Virus record (IMG/VR): IMGVR_UViG_3300037484_000445
Span: 259,863 to 323,862 of that record
From: a virus
Lineage: Duplodnaviria > Heunggongvirae > Uroviricota > Caudoviricetes
Direction: 5' to 3' (one strand)
DNA: 64,000 nt
Made by a program: the position numbers and the translations under genes
Shown here: positions 1,083 to 61,456 of the stretch, in pieces
How positions within the stretch are numbered: the first letter of the stretch is position 1
How the letters are laid out: each line of letters opens with the position of its first letter
The notes under the pieces: generated by a model
What the model was told of the DNA's origin: nothing
The model's database searches: none
The model's input: only the letters and a program-made list of their open reading frames with translations

Positions 1083-1280
1083 TTGCCCTTGGTTTTAGGG
1101 TGCATCTTCCCATACACCGATTAGATTAGACGTGCATGGACTATTCTTCGAAGTTCTTCGTTTTCCAGACAACCTCGGCAAAAATAGGTGGGCCAGTCGC
1201 TCCTCCGACAGCCGAGGATTGGCGGTTCGTTTCAATGCAAGTCGACGACGGAAGCATTGTCGTCCTATGGGCCAAAGCGG

Positions 1281-1610
1281 CTAAACACTAGTTCGGGTCC
1301 GGACCAAAGGCTTCCCTTGCACGAACTCTTGTCGTAAGCTTTGGATCCAGTGCTTAGGGAAGCTAAGGTCCGTCACGTGGAAGTCCCAAACCGAACGTGT
1401 CACATAGGTCAAGTATGTCGTTCGGGAGTAGACGAACCCAGCCATGGCCAATTCGTCCTTGGTAGCCCGCCGGCTCATAGCCCCCCAATGAGAGTTCGAC
1501 GTGAAGAACAAGGCCTTACACTCAGCACCCACAATCTCGAGGATGACCGCGTGGTGCTGCCCAAACTCATCGTTGTGGACAGCCACCATACCAGGAGCAA
1601 GGTCGGGCAT
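1281..1610 (-). CDS. hypothetical protein
   Basis: 109-aa ORF. Confidence 0.4.
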   Translation of the reverse strand: MPDLAPGMVAVHNDEFGQHHAVILEIVGAECKALFFTSNSHWGAMSRRATKDELAMAGFVYSRTTYLTYVTRSVWDFHVTDLSFPKHWIQSLRQEFVQGKPLVRTRTSV

Positions 1611-2327
1611 AACCTTAGATTACACACTCATGATGATTTGTCGCTAGTTATGTGCATACACCTGAGTTAGAATGTGTCCCTAACCGACGGCCGAGAAGGT
1701 GTTCTATGCGTGGTGCCGATCTTGTGGGAACTTGTGGCCGAGCCTGGTTGTTGAAACCCGAAAAGCCCAATCCTTCCACATTGTGCAGCTGGTTGGTGAA
1801 TCGTCCGGGGGCCCATCCTTGTTGGGAGTGGTGGCTTGTTGGATTGATCACCCTTAAGGATATCCTAGGGATCCGACCTGCTCGTAAGTCCTGTCCTGAG
1901 TCCGAATACGAGCTGATGATCTATGCCATAGACCCCAGAACTTGCGCTTCACCCGAACCTGACGATCCCAATGGCTATCCACCTCTCCTACCCTTGGATG
2001 TCGTAGAGCAGTTCCACGGTATCTCAGAGGTCGACGCCAAACATCTAACTGAGTTAGTAGTCCAGACCATTGTCTCTGGTAGGATTTCCCCAGATCAGGA
2101 CTTTCGTCGCACCTGGGGAGACGTCATTGCGGGAACGGTACAACACCTGCGAGAAGGCCGACACACTCTCAATTAGGGGCCTGTCTTTTGGCTGTCTGCG
2201 GTTTCAAACTTCTTGAGAATGGTTTGGAGTTGCATCCAAGTTCCCTTATCGTACGTTCCACTTGCGGCTTTACCCCAGAGTTTGTGAAATAGTCGCCAGA
2301 CCTCTACCCAGGCATCTCGGTTCATAG

Positions 2328-2837
2328 TTAGGACTCAGAGTTGTCGGCCTTGTCTTTCGACGCCAGCTCTTTGAGAGCCCTGACATACCACACACTTTCA
2401 ATGTCGGCATCCGTGATTTCTTTGAGATCCTCTGCCGATTTGAGTGGCTTCCACCAAGACTCACAACCCCAAACTAGACGATCTATCTCCGGTACAAAGA
2501 TCGCCGGATTAGTCACGGGTTGTAGGGTCAAAGTCTTCTTGACCTTGTGGTACATTGCGTGAACATCGATAGTCAGATCCCCTAAGTAAACACCCAGAAG
2601 GGTCTTATCACTTTTCGCTAGGCGTACGGCTACCAAAGTACCAAACATGGGATTCTGCCTAGTCTTCAAGCACGGACCGCGTTCCACGGTTGAAATCTCG
2701 ATCGTGGCTCCATGTAAACTTTCCCCCGTGAGGACATTCTTCTCGAAGTCCTCGAGATAGGCGGATAATCCGGCAAGCTCCTTAGAAAGGCTTGGTTCTT
2801 CTGTCTTGTCGGAGGTATTCTCTGTCGTTTCTTCCAT
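2328..2837 (-). CDS. hypothetical protein (start moved to ATG, MEETTEN..)
   Basis: Track ORF is 2328..2861 from GTG. The in-frame ATG at 2837 is preceded by CGGTGTATACC plus 6 nt. Confidence 0.5.
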   Translation of the reverse strand: MEETTENTSDKTEEPSLSKELAGLSAYLEDFEKNVLTGESLHGATIEISTVERGPCLKTRQNPMFGTLVAVRLAKSDKTLLGVYLGDLTIDVHAMYHKVKKTLTLQPVTNPAIFVPEIDRLVWGCESWWKPLKSAEDLKEITDADIESVWYVRALKELASKDKADNSES

Positions 2838-2882
2838 ACCAGAGGTATACACCGTGAGCACCTTTTGGTGTAGGGTGACCTC

Positions 2883-3287
2883 GTGGCACGACGCCTAATA
2901 GTTTGCCTCGGCTCTATATACCCATTTCTTTGGGCGTTACGTCACATGAAGGTTTCACAGTCCTGGGCTACTGGCTTTGAGGACTGGGTTCTACTACTGA
3001 TCGGGGCCTGCTTCACGATCGACTACGTCATCCAGAGGCTATTTCACATCGGTGAAACCCCAATGGGTCCTTTCAGACGACCAATTCAAACGGAACCTGA
3101 CGGTGATGAAGAGGAGGAACCTCCAGGAGTACCTGAATCTCGTTGGGAATATGAGAGACGGATGAAGCAGGAGCGTAAGGCTGCCGAAAGGCGAGAGCGT
3201 AGAGCTGTTCTTCGGCGGATGAAGAAAGAGGCTAGCTACCCCAACCTAGTCGAGAGAATTCTCAACAAGGACGACGATTCGGTGTAG
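2883..3287 (+). CDS. membrane-anchored protein with charged Arg/Glu-rich C-terminus
   Basis: GTG start preceded by GGTGTAGGG plus 7 nt; hydrophobic N-terminal segment. Confidence 0.5.
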   Translation: MARRLIVCLGSIYPFLWALRHMKVSQSWATGFEDWVLLLIGACFTIDYVIQRLFHIGETPMGPFRRPIQTEPDGDEEEEPPGVPESRWEYERRMKQERKAAERRERRAVLRRMKKEASYPNLVERILNKDDDSV

Positions 3288-3295
3288 GATCCCTC

Positions 3296-3946
3296 ATGGG
3301 CATCTTTCCTGTAAAGCAACCAAACGGCCTCTACGCCCTCTTTTCGACTTTCACGGACAGATACCTAGAGCAGAACCTGACTGAGCAAGATCTGCTCACT
3401 AACAGCCTTCTAGAGGATGGTTTGGCCCACGGGGAAGATATTGCTCGACGTAGCATCGAACGGGCCAACATGAGCTCTAGCCTTTGGGAGGACAGGCTCC
3501 GCGTTATGGCTCGGCAACACGGCCAGGATGACGTCTATGACGAGGTTGTCCAGTTAGGCACCCAACCCTTCGAAGTTCCCCCGGACGCCGACAGAGGTCA
3601 AATCTGGGCCCTTGTGGGCATCCTTTGGGTGAATGCTTCTCGAGTCATGCCAGCGGAGGAAGTGTTAGCCGTTGAGGTCTATTGGCCGGTAAGTGAAACC
3701 GTGTCCAGCACGGGGGACTACAACATGAAGTTCATCCGGCACAACTTCATGTTACGACAGAGCGATGCCTGGTTGGGGGCGGTCCATTGGAAGAATCCTA
3801 GTGACCAACAATACCTTCGGGTGCGAAACCAAACCTTCAAGGTGTTAGCCAATAATGGTCAAATCGAAGGGGAGGGAATGGTTCTCTACGCCAATCTTCC
3901 AAAAGAAGTCGTTGAGGCTTACTCCCAAGTGCCTATCGGTAGCTAG
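3296..3946 (+). CDS. hypothetical protein (216 aa)
   Basis: ATG preceded by CGGTGTAGGATCCCTC. Confidence 0.55.
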   Translation: MGIFPVKQPNGLYALFSTFTDRYLEQNLTEQDLLTNSLLEDGLAHGEDIARRSIERANMSSSLWEDRLRVMARQHGQDDVYDEVVQLGTQPFEVPPDADRGQIWALVGILWVNASRVMPAEEVLAVEVYWPVSETVSSTGDYNMKFIRHNFMLRQSDAWLGAVHWKNPSDQQYLRVRNQTFKVLANNGQIEGEGMVLYANLPKEVVEAYSQVPIGS

Positions 3947-3963
3947 TTCCTTATTGGCATCGC

Positions 3964-4575: not shown

Positions 4576-4915
4576 ACGGTTGCTCGGGTTCAGGTGGAAT
4601 CGACTGAACAACGAAACCAAGACTTGCCCGTCGAGCCATGAGTCTCTTTCGGAACTGAGTGTCTTCCAAGAACGCAGCTAGCTTGGCTTTACCCTGGACG
4701 TAGGCTTCGTCTTCGAAGCAGAACCCCTCTGGGTCATCTCGTACGTCCAACACACTCATAGGACTGACGAGGACGCCTCCTTCTGGAGCGTCCTCACCTG
4801 GTACCTCAACAGCTATGGCTAAGCCTAGAGGGTGCAAGATCCTTCGGTTTATCTCGAACAACAAGCCAGAATCAACCAAGAAGGTTGCTGGATCCTTAAC
4901 GTACTTTGTTTCCAT
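4559..4915 (-). CDS. hypothetical protein
   Basis: 118-aa ORF. Confidence 0.4.
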   Translation of the reverse strand: METKYVKDPATFLVDSGLLFEINRRILHPLGLAIAVEVPGEDAPEGGVLVSPMSVLDVRDDPEGFCFEDEAYVQGKAKLAAFLEDTQFRKRLMARRASLGFVVQSIPPEPEQPFMVGR

Positions 4916-4941
4916 GCCACCATTCTACACCAAGGTAGAAT

Positions 4942-6108
4942 CTATGGCGTGGCAAAGCTCATGATGGGTGTGGCAAATACGCTGTTGTCGAAGTTCCAAG
5001 CATCTCCAGTGTTGCCCTGGTAAATGAAGACACGACTGCCCGCATTGACCAGTACAATAGAAGAGTTCACAGGAACAGCATTAATGTCGTAGTTTGGCAC
5101 TCTTAGTACTTGGGACATGATCCAACTGAGGCCGCCATCCTCACTCAGGTAAGTGTAGATCTGTGCGTAAGATCCGTTGAATCCACCGACTGCAAGGATG
5201 TAACGACCTTCGACGTCTAGACGTTCCAAGTGGGAATTTGGAGCCCAGGAGAAGAAGGATTGGCTAGCAAACGTGATCCATCGACCATTGTCCCAAGAAG
5301 TACCGTTAGTTGTCGAGGAGTAGATTGCGTTGCTGGCACTATTGATAATGGCCCAACGATTGAACTTCTTGGAGTAGGTAACATCCTTGATGGGGTATGC
5401 TAGTGGCACCGATATGGTGCTCCAGGTCACGCCACCGTCAAGAGACCGGTAAGTAGACGCCCCAAAGAACATCAGGTGAACAGCGCCTGAGTCACTCACG
5501 CCATAAGCGGTTGGAGAACCCCCTGGCACGACGACCGTAGCACAGATGTTAGTGAAGGGACTCGTGGCATTCGTACCTCGCATAACCATCAAGTTGCCAC
5601 CTGGGTCTATAGCGGGGTAGTAGATGTAACCAGCGTCCTTGGCATACCTTATGAGCGACAAGGACACAGGATAGCCTGGTAAGTCGACAGAACGATCAAT
5701 GTAGTTAGGTGGGCCTTCTAGAGCATTGCCACCTAGAATAGCAAGAATCTTCCCGAGACCACTAGTGTCACCGCCTAAGATCCAAAGATAGTTATCGATG
5801 AACATCAACGAGTTGATGTTGGCGAAAGCCGTGCCAGGTCCGATGGTGAAGTCATTCTCATAGAAGTCCGCAAACGACTCGGACCTGATGATGCTAGGAG
5901 AACTTCCTAGAGAGGGCCCGCGTAGCATCACTGTCGTAAGGGTGTTGCCTTGGAAATGACAAGCACCTCTTCTTGCGTCGTCGCCCCGGATGGAATAGTG
6001 TCCGTAGGTGCTGGAAATCGGTACGTTGATTTCGGATATCCGAGTGAAGCTGGAAGCCGCCTGGAGGACAACGGGGTTGGTTACAGAGACATTTCTGAAA
6101 TGTGGCAT
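4942..6108 (-). CDS. BNR/Asp-box repeat protein (sialidase-like beta-propeller)
   Basis: SxDxGxTW Asp-box motifs (SLDGGVTWS, SEDGGLSWI); Gly/Ser/Thr/Asn/Tyr-rich. Confidence 0.65.
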   Translation of the reverse strand: MPHFRNVSVTNPVVLQAASSFTRISEINVPISSTYGHYSIRGDDARRGACHFQGNTLTTVMLRGPSLGSSPSIIRSESFADFYENDFTIGPGTAFANINSLMFIDNYLWILGGDTSGLGKILAILGGNALEGPPNYIDRSVDLPGYPVSLSLIRYAKDAGYIYYPAIDPGGNLMVMRGTNATSPFTNICATVVVPGGSPTAYGVSDSGAVHLMFFGASTYRSLDGGVTWSTISVPLAYPIKDVTYSKKFNRWAIINSASNAIYSSTTNGTSWDNGRWITFASQSFFSWAPNSHLERLDVEGRYILAVGGFNGSYAQIYTYLSEDGGLSWIMSQVLRVPNYDINAVPVNSSIVLVNAGSRVFIYQGNTGDAWNFDNSVFATPIMSFATP

Positions 6109-6111
6109 AGA

Positions 6112-7209: not shown

Positions 7210-7254
7210 TGGGCCAAAATAACGATACCTCTGGCAGGTGTATGAAGATCACAA

Positions 7255-7761: not shown

Positions 7762-7807
7762 CACACGTATATACACAGTCCGGTGTATAGTAGGTTACAG
7801 GCAGCAT

Positions 7808-8128: not shown

Positions 8129-8166
8129 GGTCTGTTCAAGAAGGCCGTTTATGCTAACACTACTGA

Positions 8167-8565
8167 GTGTCGGAAAAGCGGTCCCCACCCAGTAAGCCCC
8201 CATTTGGTACAGGCAACAGGAGGAGCCTAACCCCTCCTGTTGTGACCAAGCGAGTCCTTACGCCTAGCCCAAGTGGGCCCCCGTTACCTCGAGTTCCCTT
8301 TCCACCCTCTCTCTTCCCAGATGAGCTCCCAACGCTTAAAAAAGGAGAGACCGTCGTGGTGTACCAAAGCCTCCTATCGATCTTCGATTCGATGGGTCCA
8401 AATGAACGTTTGGAGTTCATCGAACTAGCCACGGCCTTCCGAGATCTGAGCCCAGAAGACCGTGCGTACCTAGTTGAAGAGGCTAACGGTCTGGTGTGTC
8501 TCGGAAAACCTCAGAAAGACCAAGGGCCTGGATCTTCTTCTGGAGATCTGGGGTCATCCCCGTAA
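8167..8565 (+). CDS. hypothetical Pro-rich protein
   Basis: ORF, partly overlapping the opposite-strand ORF 8160..8432. Confidence 0.35.
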   Translation: MSEKRSPPSKPPFGTGNRRSLTPPVVTKRVLTPSPSGPPLPRVPFPPSLFPDELPTLKKGETVVVYQSLLSIFDSMGPNERLEFIELATAFRDLSPEDRAYLVEEANGLVCLGKPQKDQGPGSSSGDLGSSP

Positions 8566-9394: not shown

Positions 9395-9582
9395 GTCGGT
9401 ATATACACCGACCTGAATCAGCTCTGGGCTTAAGCTTTCCACGGGAGCCCTCGTACCACTCCTCATGGGAAACGTCATCACCTGGGAAGCCCTCCAAGCC
9501 GCCGCGTCCGAACCTGATGTTCAGATTCTTTACCGGGATGGCTGGGGAAACCTTTGGGGAATCCCGTATGATTTGAAGTCGG

Positions 9583-10105: not shown

Positions 10106-10669
10106 ATGGCTACCCAAGACCAACTCAACAAGCTAAGGGATTTCACTCAGATAGTTCATCGTATCGTCGGTGGGTTTCAGAAGAGACTCCCGAGAAATGT
10201 CCTTCGCGAGGACCTCATGGCCGCTGGCATGTCGGGTCTCTGGGATGCTATCCAACGCCATACAGGGGATGACGAGCACTTCGAGTGGTACGCACGAATC
10301 AAGATTCGTGGTGCCATCTTGGATGAGCTCAGGTCTCAAGATTGGCTGTCCCGCCGCGCTCGTTGGCTCATGGCTGAGGACAACCCCATTTCGGTCGTCC
10401 GCCTCGATGATGTGTCGGACTTCGAGCAGAACAAGGCCCTTGCCGTAGAGATCGAGTATTGCTCGGAGACCAGCCGCAAGCGCCAACTACTCCGAAAAGC
10501 TATCACTCACTTGCCTGAGCGTGAACAGTTCATCATCAACCTACACGATCTGCAGGGGATTGATCTCAAAGAGATTGCTAGACAACTTGGAGTCTCTGAA
10601 CCTCGGATCTCACAACTTCGGTCACGCGCCGTGAATCAACTCAAAACCTTGATGGTCCAGGCTTCATGA
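10106..10669 (+). CDS. RNA polymerase sigma factor, sigma-70 family (regions 2 and 4 only)
   Basis: Region 2: LMAAGMSGLWDAIQRH..YARIKIRGAILDELR. Region 4.2: LPEREQFIINLHDLQGIDLKEIARQLGVSEPRISQLRSRAVNQLK. ATG at 10106 (MATQDQ). Confidence 0.8.
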   Translation: MATQDQLNKLRDFTQIVHRIVGGFQKRLPRNVLREDLMAAGMSGLWDAIQRHTGDDEHFEWYARIKIRGAILDELRSQDWLSRRARWLMAEDNPISVVRLDDVSDFEQNKALAVEIEYCSETSRKRQLLRKAITHLPEREQFIINLHDLQGIDLKEIARQLGVSEPRISQLRSRAVNQLKTLMVQAS

Positions 10670-12568: not shown

Positions 12569-12873
12569 TCGGCAGATTCGAGAAAGACCCTCAGGCCCAA
12601 GGCTGCATCGAGCCCGCGGATAAGCGTTGGCAACTCGTCATCGACAAGGACGGCTACCCGCATCTCTACGTCGAAGTCAACATAGCCGACGACAACGGTG
12701 TGAAGACCAAAGGCATGTTCTGCCTCGAGGACATGATGAACATCACCGTCAAGGAACTCATGGATGAGGGTGAGTTTGGCGGTGCTCTTCCCCCCGAAGA
12801 AGAGGAAGAGGCCATGGCCGAGTACCTAGCCTCACGAGAAAAGACTGGGATCCCGTGTCCCAGAAAGCTCTAG
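12553..12873 (+). CDS. hypothetical acidic protein
   Basis: GTG start. Confidence 0.4.
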   Translation: MQNITIGRFEKDPQAQGCIEPADKRWQLVIDKDGYPHLYVEVNIADDNGVKTKGMFCLEDMMNITVKELMDEGEFGGALPPEEEEEAMAEYLASREKTGIPCPRKL

Positions 12874-13397
12874 TCGAGCTTGGATAGGTATTGGACGGGC
12901 ACACGATCTGTGAGCCACACACCATTGGTGGACAGATAAAATGTGTGCCCGTCGATGAACATGTTCCGGGCCTTGACCAGCAGGACGTGAGGCAAGGGCC
13001 GTCGCTTGGCCACTTTGATGGCCGTCTCCGTGTCCGCCGAAAGGTGGACGTGGTGGCGGTTCATCTTCCTCAGGCCCTCTTTGAGGATCATCCCCAAAAA
13101 GTGGCCTGAGGTACCATGGTAGAGTAACTCAGGTGGCTGAGTAGCCTCATACCCTAGGTCAACTTCAACCGAATGCCCTTGGCAAGCACGGATCTTGTCG
13201 CCGTTGAACTCGTAGCGCTTCTTCTGGTCCGTGTTGACGATTTCGTACAATTCCCCCGTAGTCATTGAAGCCGCTTTTACAAGCTCTTCAATCGACACCC
13301 AGCCGGAAGCGTCGAGGGTTAGCCCAACGCTCCCAGGGTCATGCCTGAGGATCAGGCTGAGGTGTTTGCTCTTGCGTGTGCGAGTCTTGTTGTCCAT
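12870..13397 (-). CDS. kptA: RNA 2'-phosphotransferase, Tpt1/KptA family
   Basis: SKHLSLILRHDPGSVGLTLDASGWVSIEEL..HGTS..HVHL is the hallmark of Tpt1/KptA. Confidence 0.85.
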   Translation of the reverse strand: MDNKTRTRKSKHLSLILRHDPGSVGLTLDASGWVSIEELVKAASMTTGELYEIVNTDQKKRYEFNGDKIRACQGHSVEVDLGYEATQPPELLYHGTSGHFLGMILKEGLRKMNRHHVHLSADTETAIKVAKRRPLPHVLLVKARNMFIDGHTFYLSTNGVWLTDRVPVQYLSKLD

Positions 13398-13968
13398 CGG
13401 GGATTGCTTTGAAGAATTGAGGTATGGTGCCGACGGCTGTCCCGTTCTCGATCATCATCTGGTGAATAATCTTCTCGGGTACGAACCGATTACGGCCCTT
13501 CGGGCACTTCATCTTCCGTGTGTGTCCAAAGAGTTGGCAAAGCAAGGGTCTCACAACGTGAACCTTACAGGAGCCCTCTTGGAAGAAGGGGCATGTCAGA
13601 TGTCCTGTGTACTTCGGTACTACTTGATGCTTTTCGACATAAGCCTTCAAGCGATGAAGCTCCGTGGCTGTGATGGGCACAGGACCACAACAGTCGCCAC
13701 AACCGGGCACACACGTGATAACAGGTAGACTTACTCGCACTGGTTTCTCTTCGGTTAGTTCTTCGGGGACCGTCTGCAGAAGGTCTTTGCCTCGTATCGT
13801 GATTGTGTAGTCAAAGACCGCCTCAGTCTCTCGAAGAGTGGCCCTAAGGTATCTCATTGACACCAAGGCATCTTTGGTAGCTTGAGTACCTGTAAGTGTT
13901 CCTGTTCGGCTAAAGTCTCGAAGGGCGCGAATCATGACCTTTGAGACACGGTAATGATCACTCTGCAC
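13339..13968 (-). CDS. YkgJ-like Zn/Fe-chelating Cys-cluster protein
   Basis: CVPGCGDCCG resembles the CxxCGxCC motif of PF03692; additional Cys follow. Confidence 0.5.
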   Translation of the reverse strand: MQSDHYRVSKVMIRALRDFSRTGTLTGTQATKDALVSMRYLRATLRETEAVFDYTITIRGKDLLQTVPEELTEEKPVRVSLPVITCVPGCGDCCGPVPITATELHRLKAYVEKHQVVPKYTGHLTCPFFQEGSCKVHVVRPLLCQLFGHTRKMKCPKGRNRFVPEKIIHQMMIENGTAVGTIPQFFKAIPDGQQDSHTQEQTPQPDPQA

Positions 13969-13978
13969 GCCCTTCTTT

Positions 13979-15334
13979 TTACACCGACGCCGCCACCTCC
14001 GGAATCAAACCCAACAGTTTTTCTTCGGAGTTCAAGGTAGGATCTTCAGTTACCCTTTCCAACAGCTCGGCCAAGATGTTTCCAACCTTGGGCCCTGGGG
14101 GGATGTTGAGCAACGTCATCACGTGGTGGCCACTCACCGCCAACATGCTGGACGACGTGGGGATGGTGCCCACGCTGTCGATCCGGTGCTTGAGCTCGTT
14201 GATAGTGGTGATCTCCAGAGGAATGAAGGCGTTACCCTTACCTACGATGTCCGCTATAGCCAACGTGGTTAGGTGTGGGATGTGCTCGACTCCGACACTT
14301 CGCATCCATCTACGGACGGCGGCATCACTCCAATCGGATTCATATCGAACGAAGTGGTGCCGGACCAAGTGGGCCACTCGGGCGACTTCGTCGCTCGAAA
14401 ACCTCAAGCGGGTCATCAAGTCCTGCGTCATAGCGGCCCCGATATGTTCGTGGTCGTAGAACGTAGCGTCCCCGTGTTGTGGGTGGGGCTTCTTCGAATC
14501 TGGCTTGCCGATGTCGTGAAACAATGCTGCAAACCTGAGCATGGGGTCGCTGGCCGGGCAAGTATCCACCACCTTCATGGTGTGATTCCAGACATCGAAC
14601 TCATGGTACCGATTCTGGCCACACCCCACCATAGGGAGCATCTCCGGCAGAATCATTCCAAGCATCCCCGTGGAGGCCATCAGGTTGAAAGCTCTCGAGG
14701 GTTCAGCAGCGGCCATGGTCTTGGTCAATTCATCTCGGATCCGCTCAATAGAAACCCTCCCCAGTTGGTCTAGGGTATGGGCTAGGGCAATCCGAGTGGA
14801 GTCGATCAGGGTCAAGTTGTGCGTGGCCGAAAAGCGGATGGCTCGAAGAAGACGAATACCATCCTCACGGAACCGGTCAAATGAGTTTCCAACCGTACGC
14901 AAAATCCCTGCTTTGAGGTCCTGCCGTCCGTTGTAGGGGTCGAAGTAGTAGCCGCCACCCTCGACAAGAGGGTCGAAGGCTATGGCATTGACCGTGAAGT
15001 CCCGCCGGGCTAGGTCATCGTGGATGCTCGTGGAGAACTCGACGCTATCCGGCCTTCGACCGTCGGAATAGGTGCCATCCTTACGGTAGGTTGTAACCTC
15101 AAATCCTTCGCCCTCGAGACGGACCGTGATAGTCCCGTGCTTGGCTCCGATGTCCAACGAATGGCTGAAGCACCGTTGAGTCTGTTCGGGGGTGGCATTG
15201 GTCGCAAAGTCCCAATCATGGACGGACCTTTGAAGCAATAGATCTCGAACGGCACCACCTACAAGCCACGCTTCGAAACCCTTATCCTGTAGAGTCTGGC
15301 AAATGGCTATGACTTTTGGGGGGATGGAGTTCAT
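13979..15334 (-). CDS. cca: CCA-adding tRNA nucleotidyltransferase (class II) with HD domain
   Basis: GGAVRDLLL, DWDFAT, ARRDFTVNAIAF in the head domain; HD motifs HTMKVVD..FHDIGKP. Confidence 0.85.
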   Translation of the reverse strand: MNSIPPKVIAICQTLQDKGFEAWLVGGAVRDLLLQRSVHDWDFATNATPEQTQRCFSHSLDIGAKHGTITVRLEGEGFEVTTYRKDGTYSDGRRPDSVEFSTSIHDDLARRDFTVNAIAFDPLVEGGGYYFDPYNGRQDLKAGILRTVGNSFDRFREDGIRLLRAIRFSATHNLTLIDSTRIALAHTLDQLGRVSIERIRDELTKTMAAAEPSRAFNLMASTGMLGMILPEMLPMVGCGQNRYHEFDVWNHTMKVVDTCPASDPMLRFAALFHDIGKPDSKKPHPQHGDATFYDHEHIGAAMTQDLMTRLRFSSDEVARVAHLVRHHFVRYESDWSDAAVRRWMRSVGVEHIPHLTTLAIADIVGKGNAFIPLEITTINELKHRIDSVGTIPTSSSMLAVSGHHVMTLLNIPPGPKVGNILAELLERVTEDPTLNSEEKLLGLIPEVAASV

Positions 15335-15600: not shown

Positions 15601-15655
15601 GATTCTAGTACGGCGGGGTTGAAGTAGAACTTAAGGACCTGGTGTAAGGTTTGAC

Positions 15656-29654: not shown

Positions 29655-29683
29655 GAGCACACAATACACCATTGGTGTAGGGT

Positions 29684-30550: not shown

Positions 30551-31116
30551 GGACTCTCTAGAAGCTTGATCGTGTTCTTGAAGATGGCCACCAGGTCATC
30601 GCTCATGTTGAAGCGCTTCTGGTTGATCTCGATGCTCCGGTTGATGTCACCGTCAGCGTGTCGCTTGGTAGAAGCCATCCAATCACAAAAGAGCTCAAGG
30701 ATATCGACTAGGTTCATACCCCTAATACCTGAATCGAAGTGCTCCGGATGATGGCGGCTGCACTTGTAATGATGCTCCAAAGCTGGCGCGATCTCGGCTA
30801 GATACCGCTTGTATTCATCGCTGCCGTAGGTACAGGTCTTGAGCTTGGGGGTATACTCCGTGAAGGCATCGACCTCTTCAGGGCTCATCTTCGACAGATC
30901 GTGGGTTTCTCCTCGTTTTAGGAGTTCTACCGCTATTACCCGGAGGAACACTCGAACAAGATTGATGTGCTCTTGAGTAGCGGCGTTGGTTTGAAGGACT
31001 TCGTAAGATAGATTCATTTGGATAGTAGTGTTGGGCCAAATAGACGTGGAAGTTGGTAGTCCGGACTGGTCGGCTACTCGTGCGTCTACTAGTTTGGGTA
31101 TATTGAGCACATACAC
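30547..31116 (-). CDS. HD-domain phosphohydrolase
   Basis: H..HD (..RGETHDLSK) and downstream His/Asp residues; GTG start overlapping the half-motif CGGTGTAT. Confidence 0.5.
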   Translation of the reverse strand: MYVLNIPKLVDARVADQSGLPTSTSIWPNTTIQMNLSYEVLQTNAATQEHINLVRVFLRVIAVELLKRGETHDLSKMSPEEVDAFTEYTPKLKTCTYGSDEYKRYLAEIAPALEHHYKCSRHHPEHFDSGIRGMNLVDILELFCDWMASTKRHADGDINRSIEINQKRFNMSDDLVAIFKNTIKLLESP

Positions 31117-31149
31117 CGATTCTGTGAGCTGCCGGTGTATACATCCCCC

Positions 31150-35169: not shown

Positions 35170-35223
35170 GACTCCCTATACACCACCCCTTAATTTGGGT
35201 AAAGGTCTCACCGTATTGCAACC

Positions 35224-35931
35224 ATGGAAACTGCTTCCAAAAAGTACCCCCGGTCGCCCCACCTACCGTGGTCCCCCGGCGGTACCTCGGATGATCGGCG
35301 AATGCTCGACGTCTCGAGTCTTCTTGGGAAGGCGATCGTTTTCACCGAGAAATGTGATGGTAGCAACCTGACTTATACCCGAGACGCCATCTTTGCTCGA
35401 TCGCATAATGGGCCACCAACTCACGATAGCTTTGATCTGGCCAAGGCAACCCACGCCCATCTCAAGTACAAGATCCCCGCAGGGCTCTCAATCTTCTGCG
35501 AATATTGCTACGCCATCCATTCAATTGAATATGTAGCACTCCCGAGCTACTCTCTCGTATTTGGCGTCCGGGACGATAGCACCCGAGAGTGGTGGGGTTG
35601 GGAAATGGTCGAAGCCATGGCCCAAGATTTGGGACTTCCCACCGTCCCTGAGATCTGCCGCGGCGTTCTTCACACGGAAGCAGATCTTAGGGAAGTGTCC
35701 GAGGCATTTGCTCTACGACCCTCGGATTTTGGTGGAACCCGTGAAGGAGTTGTAGTCCGAGTGCTTGACGGCTTCCGTGATGAGGACTTCGATCAGAGTT
35801 TGGCTAAATGGGTCCGCAAAGGTCATGTCCAAACGGATGAGCATTGGACCAAGATGGTCATCAGACCCCAAAGGCTCAGTACTTCGGCTCGGGCAGTGTC
35901 CTGCAATACGCTAGAATTTCTAGCCAATTGA
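35224..35931 (+). CDS. ATP-dependent RNA ligase, Rnl2/DRB0094-like nucleotidyltransferase domain
   Basis: Motif I TEKCDGSN (KxDGxN), motif IV EGVVVR, motif V KWVRK. Confidence 0.6.
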   Translation: METASKKYPRSPHLPWSPGGTSDDRRMLDVSSLLGKAIVFTEKCDGSNLTYTRDAIFARSHNGPPTHDSFDLAKATHAHLKYKIPAGLSIFCEYCYAIHSIEYVALPSYSLVFGVRDDSTREWWGWEMVEAMAQDLGLPTVPEICRGVLHTEADLREVSEAFALRPSDFGGTREGVVVRVLDGFRDEDFDQSLAKWVRKGHVQTDEHWTKMVIRPQRLSTSARAVSCNTLEFLAN

Positions 35932-36346: not shown

Positions 36347-36841
36347 TTACACCAAAGGAACACCGTCGTCTATCAATCGAACGTTAGAATATCGAGGATC
36401 ACCTGTTACTTCAGGCCCTAACCATGGAGGTATTTCCACAGTGGCGAACTGTGATTCTATCTCTACTTCGGCCATTCGAAACCCGTCCAGGCTTCCCTGA
36501 AAATCATCGAGAGCCCATACGCGGCCCTCGTAAGAAAACTGGTGCCTGACCTTGATGATGGTCTTCGGGCACATCTTGATGAGTTGCTCGCCGTCGCCCC
36601 TGGGGATCTCGTATTCAAACTCATCCCGGACTAGCGTGCCGGGACCCTTGATGGTCAAGTAGGCAAGATGTCTCCCCCTAAGTCGTACCCTAACAAGAGG
36701 GTCCTTACTGAGAAACCCTTGAACTATGCGTGTCCCACCCTCCAGGATGGTGTTCGTGGGGATGTCAGAGCGAAGTAGGAACTTACGTTCGATCTCTTTG
36801 GCCATTCCTCTGGTAACACCACAGGAATGGATACCACCCAC
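36347..36841 (-). CDS. CYTH-domain triphosphate tunnel metalloenzyme
   Basis: EIERKFLL signature (ExExK) and conserved downstream Arg/Glu residues. Confidence 0.7.
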   Translation of the reverse strand: MGGIHSCGVTRGMAKEIERKFLLRSDIPTNTILEGGTRIVQGFLSKDPLVRVRLRGRHLAYLTIKGPGTLVRDEFEYEIPRGDGEQLIKMCPKTIIKVRHQFSYEGRVWALDDFQGSLDGFRMAEVEIESQFATVEIPPWLGPEVTGDPRYSNVRLIDDGVPLV

Positions 36842-42853: not shown

Positions 42854-43162
42854 GTGAATATGCCCTCAAGGACCTACAATGAGCTGAGAACTCTGATCCT
42901 CCCTTTCTGCAACGCCAGCGACCACGTACAATTCCGCACGGAAAATGAGACGGCCTCGGCTGATGTCGAGATGGCCCTCGTGACTTTCTGCACGGATCAA
43001 ACTCGGAAGGCTTCGGTAGTCTCGTTCAAGGTCTTCTTGGACTGCACCTACCGGGTTGGCCAGTCAACTTGCGTACCAACTCAAGGTTCTCGTGAGATCT
43101 TGAAGGCTTACGCACGGGCTAACGTTTTTCTCGCCAAGCTTGACCTTGAGCCGAAGGTATAG
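42854..43162 (+). CDS. hypothetical protein, paralog family C
   Basis: Similar to 45195..45527 (..VGQSTCVPTQGSREILKAYARANVFL). Confidence 0.5.
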   Translation: MNMPSRTYNELRTLILPFCNASDHVQFRTENETASADVEMALVTFCTDQTRKASVVSFKVFLDCTYRVGQSTCVPTQGSREILKAYARANVFLAKLDLEPKV

Positions 43163-43821: not shown

Positions 43822-45225
43822 TCAATCGGCACCCTTGATGTTGGCCAATGGATATAATCTGTTGGCCACTCGGGCAATCTTGTTGTCCGTAAGGACACTA
43901 AGGACTTCGTCCAGGTCTTTGTAGACCCGGCAACATTCATCCAATGGAATATGAGGGTGGTTCGTGGCGATGCCCACCACCGTATCCCCTCCAAGGGTTC
44001 GCTCGACCGTTCGCATATCCTCATCAATTTGGTCCTGCTGGCTCTCGAGTTCACGTCGAGCTCGGCCTCGGGCCATCAAACGACCTGAGCCGTGATTGAC
44101 TGAGCACGCCGATTGAATAGCCCCTGATTGTGCGAAAAGAATAGCGGCCCCATCGTACATCGACCCCGGGATGAGACAGGGGTGGCCGGTCTTTTCCCAA
44201 ACGGTTCCCACGAGGTCAGGGTGGCCCCCTGGAAAAGCTCTAGTGGCCCCCTTACGATGAACAAATCCTTTCTTGGTGGAACCATCAGGAAGAAGCAAGG
44301 TTTCCTCCTGGACGAGGTTGTGACTGATCTCGTAGTAGACAGTAGAGTCTCCCTTGAAAACCTCTTGGAGAGCTTCCTGTATGCCTCTAACTATCACATG
44401 GCGATTAGCGATAGCAAAGTTGGCAGCTGAGTTGTGATAAGCCCAATATTCCTTACCCAGGGCTTCATCTATCCTTAACCAGGATTCCTCACGTCGATTA
44501 TCTGGCAACCCTCGAAGCTCAGCTCCGCGATGAAAGAAGTGATTGGCCGTTTGCCATCCATAACCTCTCGATCCACAGTGGACCATCACGAAGACGTCTC
44601 CTGTTGCCTGGTCCGCCAGAAGTTCTACGTAGTGATTACCTCCCCCGACGGAACCTAGTTGAGGAACAACCTTGTCATAGGCCTTCTCGATGGCCTCCAG
44701 GTCAAGGTCATCTGGGATGGGAATGTATTGTCGTTCACACAGATTGCTATTGACGCCTAAAGCCTTAGCTCCATATCGGAGGATCTCTTGAGCCTTCTTG
44801 TGGCTGAAGGCCGGCATCAACTCCGGACGATTCGAACCAACCCCCGTGGCAATACGCTTTTCTACCTCTCGAACCCAAAGCTCTCGCTTGGCAAAATCCT
44901 GAACATCCTGAGTCTTGAGAGTGGTTTTTAGGGCCACAATTCCACAACTCACATCGTAACCAGACCCCGCTTGAATGAGAACATTGTCCGTGACGATCAC
45001 ACAACCAATAGGTACGCCGAAGCCCATATGACCATCAGGCATACCGTAAACCCCAGTCACGCCTTCATATGAAGCTGCATCGTGAAGCTGACTCCAAAAG
45101 GCTTCTTCAGAAGCCTCATATAGAGTCTCTGAAAAGAACACGTGAGCCTCAACCCTCATCGTGCCTACCTTAGGTAGGACGTAATGACTAGGACTTACCG
45201 GTTGAGCAATGTACTTGAAGGACAT
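43822..45225 (-). CDS. rtcB: RtcB RNA 3'-phosphate/5'-OH ligase
   Basis: MPDGHMGFG, GGGNHYVEL, HCGSRGYG, HNLV and NHGSGR motifs. Confidence 0.9.
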   Translation of the reverse strand: MSFKYIAQPVSPSHYVLPKVGTMRVEAHVFFSETLYEASEEAFWSQLHDAASYEGVTGVYGMPDGHMGFGVPIGCVIVTDNVLIQAGSGYDVSCGIVALKTTLKTQDVQDFAKRELWVREVEKRIATGVGSNRPELMPAFSHKKAQEILRYGAKALGVNSNLCERQYIPIPDDLDLEAIEKAYDKVVPQLGSVGGGNHYVELLADQATGDVFVMVHCGSRGYGWQTANHFFHRGAELRGLPDNRREESWLRIDEALGKEYWAYHNSAANFAIANRHVIVRGIQEALQEVFKGDSTVYYEISHNLVQEETLLLPDGSTKKGFVHRKGATRAFPGGHPDLVGTVWEKTGHPCLIPGSMYDGAAILFAQSGAIQSACSVNHGSGRLMARGRARRELESQQDQIDEDMRTVERTLGGDTVVGIATNHPHIPLDECCRVYKDLDEVLSVLTDNKIARVANRLYPLANIKGAD

Positions 45226-48411: not shown

Positions 48412-48864
48412 CTATACACCAGAGGGCTTAAGTGCCTTGCGGATTTCCCGCATCATGTGGGCCAATTCCGTGACCATGTAGTCCTTGATGTCGTCCCGCG
48501 GCGGCCCCCGACGATACTCGAAGGGTAAGTGCGTAGAGGGATCGACTAATTGCACCTGGGGGATCCGCCCTGGTGTGTAGACGTCAAGGATTCTAGGAAG
48601 TGAAGAGAGTTCCTCGAATGGTTTCAACCATAGCCAGCTATGCTCACACATGCCGTAGTAGCCATCCGTGTAAGTCAGATCGGTGAACCGGGCCACAGCT
48701 CGAACCAACTCATGGCAACGAACGGGCGAGCCGTCCCATTCATAAGGCACACAGGCAACGAGTTCACAGGCTTTATTGTAGAAAGCACGTTCTCGCGCTG
48801 TGAATACCTCTTGATAGGCGTACCCTTGAAACTCAAGCACTTTCTGGCACCTTTCCAGTGTCAC
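48412..48864 (-). CDS. hypothetical protein
   Basis: ORF. Confidence 0.5.
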   Translation of the reverse strand: MTLERCQKVLEFQGYAYQEVFTARERAFYNKACELVACVPYEWDGSPVRCHELVRAVARFTDLTYTDGYYGMCEHSWLWLKPFEELSSLPRILDVYTPGRIPQVQLVDPSTHLPFEYRRGPPRDDIKDYMVTELAHMMREIRKALKPSGV

Positions 48865-49042: not shown

Positions 49043-49060
49043 GAAGGTATATACACCAAA

Positions 49061-55388: not shown

Positions 55389-55862
55389 CTAGTGGCGAGG
55401 CCCTTCGCCTTTTGAGCTCACCCGATCGTCAACCCGTGGACTTCGGGGCATCACAGACAAGTCGATGTACATGGAGGCCCCGGTGTGAATTGACCAGGCC
55501 ATCCGCCCATGGGGTTTGAGCGTCGGGTTCTTACCTTCTTGCCCTTCGATGATGATCCCGCCGACCACAACCATAACAGCTTCAACCAGTTTGAAGGGCT
55601 CAACAGCTTCGTCCGTCCATGGAATGGCGACCAGGTCGAAATCCCGGGAGATGGATCCGTGAACCGCAATCGCATAGCCACATTGGCGAGCAGCGTGAAT
55701 TATTGAAGGTAGAACGGATAGATAGCAAAGGGGTCGAAGGCGTAGCCCGTCCTTGTATTCGCGAGCAGCCTCAGCAATTTCGGCATCGTCCATAGCTTCG
55801 AAGTACACCGCCCCAAAACTTTCAAGGGGCCCAAACCATATCGACTCGAACTGTGGCTCCAA
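55389..55862 (-). CDS. hypothetical protein
   Basis: ORF. Confidence 0.45.
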   Translation of the reverse strand: MEPQFESIWFGPLESFGAVYFEAMDDAEIAEAAREYKDGLRLRPLCYLSVLPSIIHAARQCGYAIAVHGSISRDFDLVAIPWTDEAVEPFKLVEAVMVVVGGIIIEGQEGKNPTLKPHGRMAWSIHTGASMYIDLSVMPRSPRVDDRVSSKGEGPRH

Positions 55863-58164: not shown

Positions 58165-58182
58165 GGCCAGTATATACACCGG

Positions 58183-58701: not shown

Positions 58702-58719
58702 GTTTGACCCCCACGGACA

Positions 58720-59019
58720 TCAGGCTTTAACTATTTTCAAACTACGTAGAGGTCGAGGACCATTACTAAATTCGACGTCTCTACGTGAGCTACCCATACG
58801 AAGACATCTCTCGAGATGTCCTTGCCAACAGTCAGAGGCTTTTTCGTCGAACTTCAGGTGTAAGTACCTCCCAGCAGGTGCTTGAATAATCGAGAAAATC
58901 CCACAATCCTGAAATTCGGCCGTTGCAGGAGCTACAGCCACGATTTCTAGGTCCAGAATGGTTGGATCATCAACACTAACGGTCATATTCAGGTTGTTGA
59001 TGTATGTCTGAATGTTCAT
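58720..59019 (-). CDS. hypothetical protein
   Basis: ORF. Confidence 0.4.
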   Translation of the reverse strand: MNIQTYINNLNMTVSVDDPTILDLEIVAVAPATAEFQDCGIFSIIQAPAGRYLHLKFDEKASDCWQGHLERCLRMGSSRRDVEFSNGPRPLRSLKIVKA

Positions 59020-59031
59020 TGGGGTCCCCCA

Positions 59032-59649: not shown

Positions 59650-59891
59650 AGGGCCTCGTAGCCGAAGTCAGTGATGATTTGATCACGCTCAAGGGGTTGG
59701 GCTCCGAATCCGGGAGCTATACGGTTGCGGTGGCCACAGTAGAAAGCCACCAGACGGCCTTCGTGGGAGAGCACGATACCATTCGGGCCATGAGCTTTGG
59801 CGGCCACACAAGCTTCATACAGAGTGTTTCCGGTCGACTGCGTTCCTTGGCCGTCATCCCTAGCTACTTTGTACTGCTTGTCGTAGTCCAT
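59646..59891 (-). CDS. small hypothetical protein
   Basis: ATGA overlap. Confidence 0.4.
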   Translation of the reverse strand: MDYDKQYKVARDDGQGTQSTGNTLYEACVAAKAHGPNGIVLSHEGRLVAFYCGHRNRIAPGFGAQPLERDQIITDFGYEAL

Positions 59892-59936
59892 GCTTCTAGT
59901 ACGAAGGGCTTTGGGGGAGAGTTAAGCCCTTCAGCC

Positions 59937-60164
59937 TTATTCGATCCGAAAGACGTCGAGAACGCCGAGATAGGCGATTGAGACATTGCTCTGTTGGAAG
60001 TGCTCTGTGGCGTCCTGGCGAGCATTCTCAGGGGTCGAACCATAACCCCAAACGGCGTGGGATGATACCAGAACGTAATTGCCTACAGCAGCATTCCTAA
60101 GTCCTATGTGTTCGCTGTTGTAGCGCTTGAGTTCCTCAGGCCTAATTGTTTTGGGTCCAGACAT
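59937..60164 (-). CDS. small hypothetical protein
   Basis: ORF. Confidence 0.4.
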   Translation of the reverse strand: MSGPKTIRPEELKRYNSEHIGLRNAAVGNYVLVSSHAVWGYGSTPENARQDATEHFQQSNVSIAYLGVLDVFRIE

Positions 60165-60175
60165 GAACTACCCCC

Positions 60176-60619
60176 TCAAATCCCAAGCTCCTTTGGATCG
60201 ACCAGCTTGTAGAAGTCCTCTGAGGCACCGAAGGTTTGAAGCTTACGAGCATTCTGGCTCATGAATTCTTGAACCGCCGAAGTCCACCCTGAGTCGTGTG
60301 AGCATAGCAGCGTCCAAGGAGACGATCCTTCAACGTAGTCCTTGCCGGACTTGACGTACGAATCATCCTCTTCCTCGTTGTATTCGAGGTCCTCAAGGGG
60401 GATGACGTTCCAACGCTCACGTACATACACGCTCACGTAGTTGCATTCAGCGTAGAGAACCAGGTCAACGTACCTGTAGCCCTCTTCCTTATCGTGGTCA
60501 ATACTGGTCGAGAATCCAACGACGAACGCCTTGGGTTCAGGCTTCTTGGATTGCCACTTACCGGCTACACGTTCAAAGGTTCTACAGATGGCTGTTCCGA
60601 GTAGGTAGGCGAGGGACAT
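60176..60619 (-). CDS. hypothetical protein
   Basis: ORF. Confidence 0.5.
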   Translation of the reverse strand: MSLAYLLGTAICRTFERVAGKWQSKKPEPKAFVVGFSTSIDHDKEEGYRYVDLVLYAECNYVSVYVRERWNVIPLEDLEYNEEEDDSYVKSGKDYVEGSSPWTLLCSHDSGWTSAVQEFMSQNARKLQTFGASEDFYKLVDPKELGI

Positions 60620-60665
60620 GCCTACAATACGAGTGGAACCTCGTAGGACTTAATGGCCTTTTATC

Positions 60666-61061
60666 TTAGGCCCGCTCACCAGGGAATAGTTCGGGTGTCT
60701 TTCGAGTGATCCCCTCAGCCACATACCAAGCTAGGGCTAAGAGCCCGCCATGCAAGCGAGCCCATCCCTGGCCATCCTTACCCTCAGGGACGGCCTCGAG
60801 TCGAGCCCCAGGCGGTACGCTGGCGTCCCAAAGTGGCATATTAAGGCCATTCACACCATAGACGACGACATCTAACATCTGGAGATTACCTTCCCAGGTG
60901 GTCAAGTACGATTGGCCTTCGTGGTCAATCCAACCCAAGAGGTAAATATGATCCCAAGTTAGCTTTTCTGGAGGCACTAAGTCGCTCATGGCCTCACAAG
61001 CCATATCAGGAACAAGCCCAGCAAACAACCGACTAGAATGGCCACCACCGTAGGTCCCCAC
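60666..61061 (-). CDS. hypothetical protein
   Basis: ORF. Confidence 0.45.
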   Translation of the reverse strand: MGTYGGGHSSRLFAGLVPDMACEAMSDLVPPEKLTWDHIYLLGWIDHEGQSYLTTWEGNLQMLDVVVYGVNGLNMPLWDASVPPGARLEAVPEGKDGQGWARLHGGLLALAWYVAEGITRKTPELFPGERA

Positions 61062-61354
61062 TTTGAAGCTCGTAGATTTTCTAGCAGACGGGACTTAGAA
61101 GAAATGGCCTTGATCCTTACTTTCAACCGTGGAAACTCCGCAGACCGTACCCACTGGGCTGCAGAAATCGCCGGGATGGCTTTCACCTTCAACCGTGGAG
61201 GTCCGCAATTGGCTACGCACTCGTATCCGTCACTGACACTTCCTGTGCCGCAACGACAAGACGAACAAATGAGCCGACTACAGTTGTTGCAAGGATACAG
61301 ATCCTCAGCACTCCGACCACATCGCTTACAAGTTCCAGAACAACGTATGCCCAT
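60986..61354 (-). CDS. Cys-rich Zn-ribbon-like protein (start moved to ATG, MGIRCSG..)
   Basis: GAGGAA lies 8 nt upstream of the ATG, an SD-led exception; the motif CGGTGTATACG lies 26 nt upstream. Confidence 0.4.
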   Translation of the reverse strand: MGIRCSGTCKRCGRSAEDLYPCNNCSRLICSSCRCGTGSVSDGYECVANCGPPRLKVKAIPAISAAQWVRSAEFPRLKVRIKAISSKSRLLENLRASKWGPTVVAILVGCLLGLFLIWLVRP

Positions 61355-61456
61355 ATAGGATTCCTCAATTTCACTAAGCGTATACACCGAAGCCGTGTGA
61401 ATGGCTTTCTGGGATGATCCTGCATATCCCACGGTTTTCGGTGTATGTGCCAACCC

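Follow-up and report, generated by a model that had tools for sequence, protein, structure and literature searches.

What is the short, oriented sequence that recurs immediately upstream of so many start codons in a stretch of a tailed virus (IMG/VR record IMGVR_UViG_3300037484_000445, positions 259,863 to 323,862), and does it act in DNA or in RNA? The stretch, which is 64,000 nucleotides (nt) long and is called the window below, carries dozens of copies of the sequence, whose core is YGGTGTA (Y is C or T). The comparative and positional evidence suggests to us, with a probability of roughly 70%, that YGGTGTA is a compact promoter core that yields messenger RNAs (mRNAs) without a leader. An earlier reading of the same DNA, made from its letters without database searches (the sequence-only reading), had drawn attention to the motif and had made several proposals about its function, not all of which have survived.

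A motif at a fixed distance from start codons

GGTGTA is present 54 times in the window, and 25 or 26 of these copies have an ATG or GTG at a gap of 9-11 nt, with a mode of 10. The gap is the number of nucleotides between the final A of GGTGTA and the first base of the start codon, and a linked start had to open an open reading frame (ORF) of at least 45-50 codons. GGTGTA ranks first of all 4096 hexamers for start linkage, and the best unrelated hexamer scores six. Fifty-nine permutations of its letters are start-linked in 2.7% of the cases on average versus 46% for GGTGTA itself, and its reverse complement is never start-linked (0 of 54). An unbiased scan of k-mers by offset from the candidate starts of the window also has GGTGTA at the top, at offset 16 (23 observed versus 0.35 expected). 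Among longer sequences, the 12-mer CGGTGTATATAC is present six times (0.01 expected) and GGTGTATA 20 times (0.85 expected). When the gap is widened to 8-13 nt, 29 of the 46 YGGTGTA copies are start-linked, and the 64 kb contain about 33 start-linked YGGTGTA copies altogether.

The start-proximal motif is real, and in this respect the sequence-only reading, which had described a recurring oriented motif before many starts, is confirmed. Most of the sites that it listed also stand. The exceptions are 1111-1120, where the nearest plausible ATG is 30 nt away, 7781-7790 (20 nt, in front of the HU gene) and 31110-31124, none of which has the standard spacing. About nine good sites had been overlooked; their cores start at 4926 (minus), 7237 (plus), 12402 (minus), 13980 (minus), 25000 (minus), 29665 (minus), 29674 (plus), 38042 (minus) and 55804 (minus). 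The sites in the window are as follows, with every start coordinate checked again, protein lengths in amino acids (aa) and GGTGTA as the core unless another sequence is named. Those labelled L039 and L040 are related loci, as are the other L numbers used below.

1113-1118, minus: nearest plausible start ATG 1082, 30 nt away (94-aa ORF); a tentative assignment
1621-1626, minus: one-mismatch variant TGTGTA, ATG 1610, gap 10, 109 aa
2848-2853, minus: ATG 2837, gap 10, 169 aa; orthologous copies in L039 and L040
2867-2872, plus: GTG 2883, gap 10, 134 aa; divergent partner of the 2848 minus copy
3281-3286, plus: ATG 3296, gap 9, 216 aa; overlaps the TAG stop of the upstream gene
4926-4931, minus: ATG 4915, gap 10, 118 aa; kept in L039 and L040 despite diverged flanks
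7237-7242, plus: ATG 7255, gap 12 (gap 10 in L039 and L040), 168 aa
7782-7787, plus: HU gene, ATG 7808, gap 20 (19-21 in L039 and L040); implied leader of about 10 nt
9404-9409, minus: ATG 9394, gap 9, 303 aa
12402-12407, minus: ATG 12391, gap 10, 204 aa, pyrophosphatase-like
13980-13985, minus: GTG 13968, gap 11, 209 aa; overlaps the TAA stop of the CCA-adding enzyme gene
15641-15646, plus: ATG 15656, gap 9, small ORF of 52 aa (73 aa in relatives)
25000-25005, minus: ATG 24990, gap 9, ThiF-like, 239 aa; overlaps the upstream TAA stop
29665-29670, minus: ATG 29654, gap 10, 159 aa
29674-29679, plus: ATG 29690, gap 10, 286 aa; tail-to-tail with the 29665 minus copy, 3 nt apart
31112-31117, minus: at a divergent junction
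31134-31139, plus: ATG 31150, gap 10, 93 aa
34573-34578, minus: ATG 34562, gap 10, 433 aa; N-terminus MGSF conserved from residue 1 in relatives
35179-35184, minus: GTG 35169, gap 9, 86 aa
38042-38047, minus: ATG 38028, gap 13, 211 aa
38054-38059, plus: ATG 38070, gap 10, 138 aa
41221-41226, minus: ATG 41208, gap 12, nucleoside hydrolase-like, 299 aa
41231-41244, plus: variant AGTGTA (gap 11), then GGTGTA (gap 3), ATG 41248, 165 aa
42804-42819, both strands: the sole full palindrome, CGGTGTATATACACCG (16 bp); minus copy with ATG 42802, gap 10; plus copy with no start at the standard spacing, the gene at 42860 plus having a class-2 motif (see below) instead
48415-48420, minus: GTG 48404, gap 10, 191 aa; overlaps the upstream TAG stop
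49052-49057, minus: ATG 49042, gap 9, 69 aa
50672-50677, minus: ATG 50661, gap 10, 173 aa
50683-50688, plus: ATG 50701, gap 12, 67 aa
51321-51326, minus: GTG 51310, gap 10, 149 aa
52972-52977, minus: ATG 52956, gap 15 (short leader), 170 aa
53556-53561, minus: ATG 53544, gap 11, 155 aa
53567-53572, plus: GTG 53583, gap 10, 152 aa; the entire divergent intergenic region is 38 bp
55804-55809, minus: ATG 55793, gap 10, 134 aa
58175-58180, minus: ATG 58164, gap 10, 152 aa
61383-61388, minus: GTG 61374, gap 8, small ORF of 53 aa
61440-61445, plus: ATG 61457, gap 11, AAA ATPase, 416 aa

At least four of these copies (3281 plus, 13980 minus, 25000 minus and 48415 minus) overlap the stop codon of the upstream gene, as GGTGTAA, GGTGTAG or GGTGTATAG. 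The overlaps indicate that the constraint acts on the nucleic acid and that the coding sequence accommodates the motif.

Anatomy of the motif and the start codons behind it

Sequence logos were built from 26 window sites and from 83 sites of the window and its relatives, and in both of them conservation is restricted to t-Y-GGTGTA. The YGGTGTA core lies at -17 to -11 from the start codon; at the modal gap of 10, GGTGTA spans -16 to -11 from the A of the ATG and its TA falls at -12/-11. Outside the motif, the 83 sites share nothing from -40 to -3 apart from a slight preference for C in the gap before the start codon. By position YGGTGTA is -10-like, and by sequence it is non-canonical.

Two details of the sequence-only reading are not supported here. 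An embedded TATATA had been described in all the copies; however, the TATATA/TATAC extension is present in only about eight window copies and is confined to this phage and its close relatives, the distant relatives having G, A or C instead, and it is thus not supported as the functional part. Shared downstream spacers had been taken as a hint of timing classes, but orthologous spacers differ between close relatives.

Two classes of motif have to be distinguished before turning to the Shine-Dalgarno (SD) sequences. Class 1 is YGGTGTA, and class 2, to which we return below, is CTTAAS-N17-CGTAyTA (S is C or G). SD-like sequences are present at three of the 30 class-1 genes in the window, versus 10% in a random background and 27% of the genes with neither motif, and they are present at three of 57 pooled class-1 sites and at none of 11 class-2 genes of the window. 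The lack of an SD at the motif genes, which the sequence-only reading had pointed out, is therefore borne out. Overall, SD reliance is low in this genome, given the 27% of motif-free genes that have an SD-like sequence. In addition, about 30 co-directional genes of the window overlap their upstream neighbor, many by 4 nt.

The 57 pooled sites come from the window and its relatives and have a gap of 9-11 nt. Their start codons are 47 ATG, 10 GTG and no TTG, and the base at -1 is C or T in 74% of them. GTG starts had been described as frequent, but they account for only seven of the 26 window sites. Transcription starts typically have a pyrimidine at -1 and then a purine at +1.

This last feature bears on one of the alternatives, namely that the motif is an RNA-processing site at which a sequence-specific endoribonuclease cuts about 10 nt past GGUGUA and so frees leaderless mRNAs and transfer RNA (tRNA) precursors. 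Such a site would cover the copies upstream of tRNA genes, described below, as well as those between co-directional genes, and the window is rich in genes for RNA repair and processing. However, processing would leave unexplained the C or T at -1 and the purine at +1, the fixed pairing of the motif with an upstream TTGATC in one relative (L007) and the enrichment at very short divergent junctions, which must contain promoters. No candidate nuclease was found either, and we regard this explanation as very unlikely.

Conservation in related huge phages

There is no near-identical record for the window among deposited phages. Protein searches against cultured phages found only distant jumbo myoviruses (GAP32, CBB, fHe-Yen9-04 and Synechococcus B3/B23), together with one uncultured 485-kb phage in which the motif is not present. 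The conserved 433-aa protein of the window finds relatives on IMG/VR contigs of 173-435 kb, with 31-47% amino-acid identity and 50-66% guanine plus cytosine (GC). The distant similarity to cultured jumbo myoviruses and the relatives on huge contigs indicate that the window comes from an uncultured huge phage.

About 15 related contigs of huge phages (50-65% GC) have the motif with its spacing unchanged. An unbiased k-mer-by-offset scan of 11 distant relatives also has GGTGTA at the top, at offset 15-17 (55 observed versus 3.0 expected), and each 21-kb distant-relative locus has 3-8 copies at 9-11 nt, with the exception of L011. For example, the orthologous 433-aa gene has the motif 9-11 nt before its ATG in L001, L002, L007 and L009, where the flanks are unalignable. 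The start codon of this gene is fixed by the protein alignment, in which M1 and G2 are invariant.

The sigma factor encoded in the window led to four syntenic close relatives (L039, L040, L044 and L045), whose own sigma factors are 65-79% identical to it. At many orthologous genes in these four the motif persists although the flanks have diverged, and independent gene calls in them often match the starts predicted by the motif.

The pattern has its limits. It is missing in LR745208, a more distant genome, and it was not seen in three contigs of metagenome-assembled genomes (MAGs) that have a homologue of the 433-aa protein (Tessaracoccus, Saccharibacteria and Omnitrophota bins). Start-linked GGTGTA was likewise not seen in one putative host-lineage locus (Polyangiaceae-like, L042), which has only 16 genes. 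A search of viral contigs with the 16-bp palindrome returned only unrelated contigs.

Transcription or translation

In two of the related loci the motif precedes genes that are not translated: in both L007, with a tRNA(tca), and L012, with a tRNA(cta), 12 nt separate it from the mature 5' end of the tRNA. The presence of the motif before untranslated tRNA genes argues against a translation signal.

L007 provides a second line of evidence. It has a bipartite class, GGTTGATC-N16-(n)TGTAGGAGA, in which the spacer is exactly 16 nt in seven of seven gene-linked copies and an ATG follows 3-6 nt later. The copies in L007 are as follows.

530-557, plus: bipartite class
896-923, plus: bipartite class
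2865-2892, minus: bipartite class
2902-2929, plus: bipartite class
4747-4774, minus: bipartite class
5100-5127, plus: bipartite class
21431-21458, minus: bipartite class

The L007 tRNA promoter is a hybrid, GGTTGATC-N14-GGTGTA, which is equivalent to TTGATC-N16-TGTA. Consequently, TTGATC is located exactly 16 nt upstream of TGTA in eight of eight sites, one of them with GGTGTA. A fixed -35/-10 spacing is a hallmark of sigma-dependent promoter recognition, and the fixed 16-nt spacing between TTGATC and TGTA ties the TGTA core to a -10 role. The L007 promoters with a good -35 (TTGATC) do not have the GG prefix, and the GGTGTA promoters are mostly without a -35. The bipartite class also contains AGGAGA, which could double as an SD in transcripts that read through.

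Where the gap is longer in orthologues, the would-be leader tends to contain an SD. In L003, GGTGTA-N26-TTG contains AAGAGGAGG, and in L010, ACGAGGAccaaATG contains GAGGA. Among the class-2 sites with a longer gap, 17766 (minus) and its orthologues carry GAGGG.

The arrangement of the genes is also informative. Starts at divergent junctions have a class-1 or class-2 motif in 21 of 38 cases, versus 20 of 77 co-directional starts. Several of the divergent intergenic regions, at only 33-45 bp, could hardly accommodate another promoter. The window shows no enrichment of canonical sigma-70 promoters (11 versus 12.3 expected) and no clear enrichment of intrinsic terminators.

These results have to be set against the possibility that the motif acts in the mRNA, as a non-SD signal for translation initiation that the ribosome or a phage RNA-binding protein recognizes. 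The fixed spacing to the start codon would suit such a signal, as would the many copies between co-directional genes, at least four of which overlap an upstream stop, and the mycobacteriophage SAS elements discussed below are similar in layout (PMC3203893). However, a translation signal should have no reason to lie 12 nt before two tRNA genes or to pair with a -35-like element at exactly 16 nt, and two longer-gap orthologues have a separate SD downstream of the motif. Furthermore, with nothing else conserved from -40 to -3, the 33-45 bp divergent junctions would need a promoter inside the neighboring gene. We therefore consider a role in translation to be quite unlikely. A variant of this idea, in which the motif is itself an SD, was rejected: only GGUG could pair with the CACC of the 16S tail, and by established SD geometry a distance of 12 nt to the AUG is too long, as the GGUG-CACC register with the 16S 3' tail needs a shorter one.

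Inverted pairs and folding

Inverted pairs of GGTGTA are present at nine junctions, with spacings of 3, 5, 5, 6, 12, 13, 16, 28 and 51 nt, and most copies are solitary. The sequence-only reading had offered a dimeric operator as an alternative. More broadly, the motif might be bound by a phage regulator that governs promoters elsewhere, be it HU, the XRE-family protein or a dimer seated on the palindromic pairs; the inverted pairs, the one perfect 16-bp palindrome and the HU and XRE-family genes in the window would agree with such an operator. However, pairs that are 3-51 nt apart have no fixed dimer geometry, the orientation and position of each copy are set by its own downstream start and not by the other copies, and no other promoter-like sequence is conserved nearby. 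An operator is thus an unlikely explanation for the motif, although a regulator might also bind the same sequence.

A hairpin in RNA, the other alternative offered, or in DNA can hardly be maintained. Six of 25 motif-centered 40-nt segments do fold significantly better than shuffled controls, but these are mostly the inverted pairs at divergent junctions. The solitary copies have no common structure (the mean z-score for folding versus shuffled sequences is -0.9), and the distant relatives keep the 7-mer with no pairing partner. As there is no conserved complementary arm, the hairpin is effectively refuted.

How the proposed promoter would work

We propose that this huge phage and a clade of related uncultured huge phages use YGGTGTA as a compact promoter. 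An RNA polymerase holoenzyme, probably the host core with a sigma-type specificity factor, would recognize GGTG as a duplex, and melting of the DNA would begin at the TA (-12/-11 if the start codon is +1). Transcription would then start about 10 nt past the motif, mostly at the A or G of the start codon, and would produce an mRNA with neither a 5' leader nor an SD, whose translation would be initiated in the leaderless mode. A -35 element would be dispensable, and the extra upstream GG(T) apparently substitutes for it. Both the position of the transcription start and the leaderless translation are inferred from sequence.

Leaderless mRNAs from a phage-specific promoter had also been the proposal of the sequence-only reading. 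This part is supported indirectly, by the copies upstream of tRNAs, the -35-like pairing in a relative, the absence of an SD, the restriction to ATG and GTG starts and the enrichment at divergent junctions; the suggested link to the sigma factor is not supported, as explained in the next section.

Several observations weigh against the promoter interpretation. The tRNA evidence consists of two independent cases, and the tRNA of L006 does not have the motif. When further tRNA cases were sought, a motif-plus-tRNA pattern gave mostly non-tRNA matches and a tRNA 3'-half pattern gave an unrelated phage. YGGTGTA is not depleted inside genes (about 11 copies versus 11-13 expected from Markov models), which would mean either that the 7-mer alone is insufficient as a promoter or that spurious starts are tolerated. 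The overlaps with co-directional upstream stop codons suit a post-transcriptional role equally well. Compared with a sigma-70 -10 hexamer (TAnnnT), the TA is invariant, but the equivalent of T-7 is a T in only 29 of the 83 sites, and compared with an extended -10, the TG directly abuts the TA (GG-TG-TA) in all the copies, with no spacer base. Finally, a phmmer search with T4 gp55 against all the ORFs of the window and the related loci, which cover a fraction of each genome, gave no match, and no second sigma factor was found in the same sequences.

A second motif class and the sigma factor

The full class-2 pattern is (C)CTTAA(G/C)-N16-18-CGTA(C/T)T(A/G)-N5-ATG. CTTAAS-N16-19-CGTA is present 11 times in the window (0.51 expected), and at about 14 genes the ATG is 8-9 nt after CGTA. 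As class 2 also abuts the ATG, promoters placed at the start codon would be a general feature of how this genome is built. The class-2 sites of the window, given by the C of CGTA, are as follows.

9452, plus: class 2
10094, plus: class 2
15612, minus: class 2
18947, minus: class 2
22375, minus: class 2
25577, minus: class 2
35212, plus: class 2
39073, minus: class 2
42478, minus: class 2
42847, plus: class 2
47487, minus: class 2
51747, minus: class 2
59903, minus: class 2
60631, minus: class 2
17766, minus: class 2 with a leader
19004, plus: class 2 with a leader
53051, minus: class 2 with a leader

The sigma-28/FliA consensus is TAAA-N15-GCCGATAA, also given as TAAAG-N16-CGATAA. TTAAG-N17-CGTAyTA of class 2 resembles TAAAG-N16-CGATAA in both halves and in spacing; in contrast, YGGTGTA has no conserved -35 half and no match to GCCGATAA. 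From its sequence, class 2 looks like a -35/-10 promoter of the sigma-28/group-3 type that would also give leaderless mRNAs.

The one sigma factor of the window (10106-10669, plus; 187 aa) has regions 2 and 4 only, and it is most similar to the FliA/WhiG models, though below their cut-offs. Its phage homologues have 65-98% identity and are on contigs of up to 449 kb. The nearest cellular homologues, with about 56% identity, are chromosomal sigma factors of 260-290 aa in Polyangiaceae MAGs; in L042 the Polyangiaceae homologue adjoins pilMNOPQ. This similarity hints at a Myxococcota host or donor lineage. A search for the sigma factor by exact peptide words found nothing in viral contigs.

In the window, L039, L040, L044 and L045, the sigma gene itself has class 2 in front of it. 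The class was not found in the distant relatives that retain GGTGTA, being present only in relatives with the sigma factor. The likeness to the consensus, the location before the sigma gene and the restriction to relatives that carry the sigma factor together make the window sigma a better candidate reader for class 2 than for YGGTGTA, which the sequence-only reading had linked with it. YGGTGTA is conserved far more widely, and its distribution speaks for a reader that is itself more conserved and either comes from the host or is encoded by the phage. Another possibility is that related sigma region-2 domains read all the classes, as these have a YGTA core in common. Searches of about 30 proteins against PHROGs and Pfam found no transcription factor beyond the sigma factor, HU and the XRE-family protein.

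Comparison with known systems

Two features expected of a leaderless promoter are present here: a fixed short distance to the start (a gap of 9-11 nt at 25-26 window sites and at the 57 pooled sites) and the absence of an SD. The closest functional analogue would be the mode described in Deinococcus-Thermus, in which the promoter -10 motif is directly adjacent to ORFs and leaderless mRNAs result (PMC12340547). The two have in common one short element a fixed few bases before the start, no SD, an optional -35 and use at many genes. They differ in sequence, the element being YGGTGTA here and not TANNNT, with no T at -7. Without TANNNT and T-7, the reader is unlikely to be an ordinary primary sigma factor acting in the ordinary way. 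Another difference is that the motif is conserved across a phage clade here and was not seen in the single putative host-lineage locus analyzed. A similar leaderless case is reportedly found among the middle and late promoters of the Thermus phage phiYS40 (Sevostyanova et al. 2007).

The late promoters of phage T4 have the sequence TATAAATA and are read by gp55 with gp33 and the sliding clamp; their mRNAs have leaders with an SD. Like YGGTGTA, they consist of one phage-specific block of about 8 bp near -10, with no -35 and with dozens of copies per genome, and the distant cultured relatives of the clade belong to the T4-related jumbo myoviruses. However, the two sequences are unrelated, the T4 mRNAs are not leaderless, and a gp55 homologue was not found in the sequence covered.

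In the extended -10 promoters of sigma-70 (TGnTATAAT), the TG is at -15/-14, one base from the hexamer. In both cases, added duplex contacts upstream of the -10 would replace a missing -35, which is the trade between the GG prefix and the -35 seen in L007. In contrast to the extended -10, the TG of YGGTGTA abuts the TA, and the downstream half of the hexamer is not conserved.

Finally, the Start-Associated Sequences (SAS) of Cluster K mycobacteriophages are a 13-bp repeat with the SD core AGGAG, 3-7 bp from the start, for which the authors propose a role in translation initiation (PMC3203893). An oriented asymmetric repeat near many starts, occasional overlap with an upstream stop, clade specificity and a preference for ATG are common to both. 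YGGTGTA differs in that it has 7 bp and no AGGAG, is 9-11 nt away, is also found before tRNA genes and can be paired with a -35-like element.

A literature search found no report of this motif or of leaderless promoter classes in huge phages. The leaderless promoter strategy is known, and the sequence and the phage group are most likely new.

Other features of the window and its relatives

The window encodes a 938-aa tail-fiber-like protein, RtcB, an RNA ligase, a CCA-adding enzyme and Tpt1/KptA, as well as CYTH, ThiF-like, ATP-grasp and nucleoside-hydrolase proteins, HU, an XRE-family regulator and the sigma factor. Genes for RNA repair and tRNA maintenance (Tpt1/KptA, the CCA-adding enzyme with an HD domain, the RNA ligase, CYTH and RtcB) are dense, and this set fits a counter-defense against host tRNA nucleases. 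Their positions in the window are as follows.

12870-15334, minus: RNA repair/tRNA maintenance
35224-35931, plus: RNA repair/tRNA maintenance
36347-36841, minus: RNA repair/tRNA maintenance
43822-45225, minus: RNA repair/tRNA maintenance

Rfam and tRNA scans of the window were empty. Three of the relatives have suppressor-type tRNAs.

L006, 12788-12860, minus: tRNA (CTA)
L007, 17610-17682, minus: tRNA (TCA)
L012, 13968-14042, minus: tRNA (CTA)

Such tRNAs could mean that stop codons are reassigned or read through in some of these genomes. In the window itself, the genes read normally under genetic code 11.

Three further places in the window stand out. The divergent junction at about 25936-25978, between the gene at 25624-25935 (minus) and the gene of the 938-aa tail-fiber-like protein (from 25979, plus), has neither motif class. 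It holds an inverted repeat, TTCGATAAAAGTTTCATCGAA on the minus strand (TTCGATGAAACTTTTATCGAA on the plus strand), which may be a third regulatory signal. The sequence GTATATACAC at about 7763-7775 (plus) is just 5' of the GGTGTA of the HU gene and is kept in L039, L040, L044 and L045. On the opposite strand it is a TGTGTATATAC variant directed into the upstream gene; either an antisense start or a site for a regulator is conceivable here. A further YGGTGTA copy, at 8358-8363 (plus), is in the convergent gap after the HU gene. It is conserved in L040, where a 69-aa ORF is called across it, and it may mark a small unannotated gene or a non-coding transcript.

Significance

If the promoter interpretation is correct, it would provide a simple rule for locating gene starts and transcription units in huge phages (170-450 kb) so far seen only in metagenomes. 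Starts in these genomes may be misplaced by standard gene callers that depend on the SD. Two short putative promoter classes have been defined, one of which has a candidate sigma factor in the window.

The results also suggest that these phages largely avoid SD-dependent initiation, which bears on how host transcription and translation are redirected. A wider and much more tentative possibility, which we would not yet favor, is that the clade expresses a large share of its genes leaderless from a minimal 7-bp promoter read by a clade-conserved specificity factor. This factor would either recognize a -10 in a new way, with no need of T-7 or a -35, or come from the phage and redirect the host polymerase, and it would allow the phages to bypass SD initiation during host takeover.

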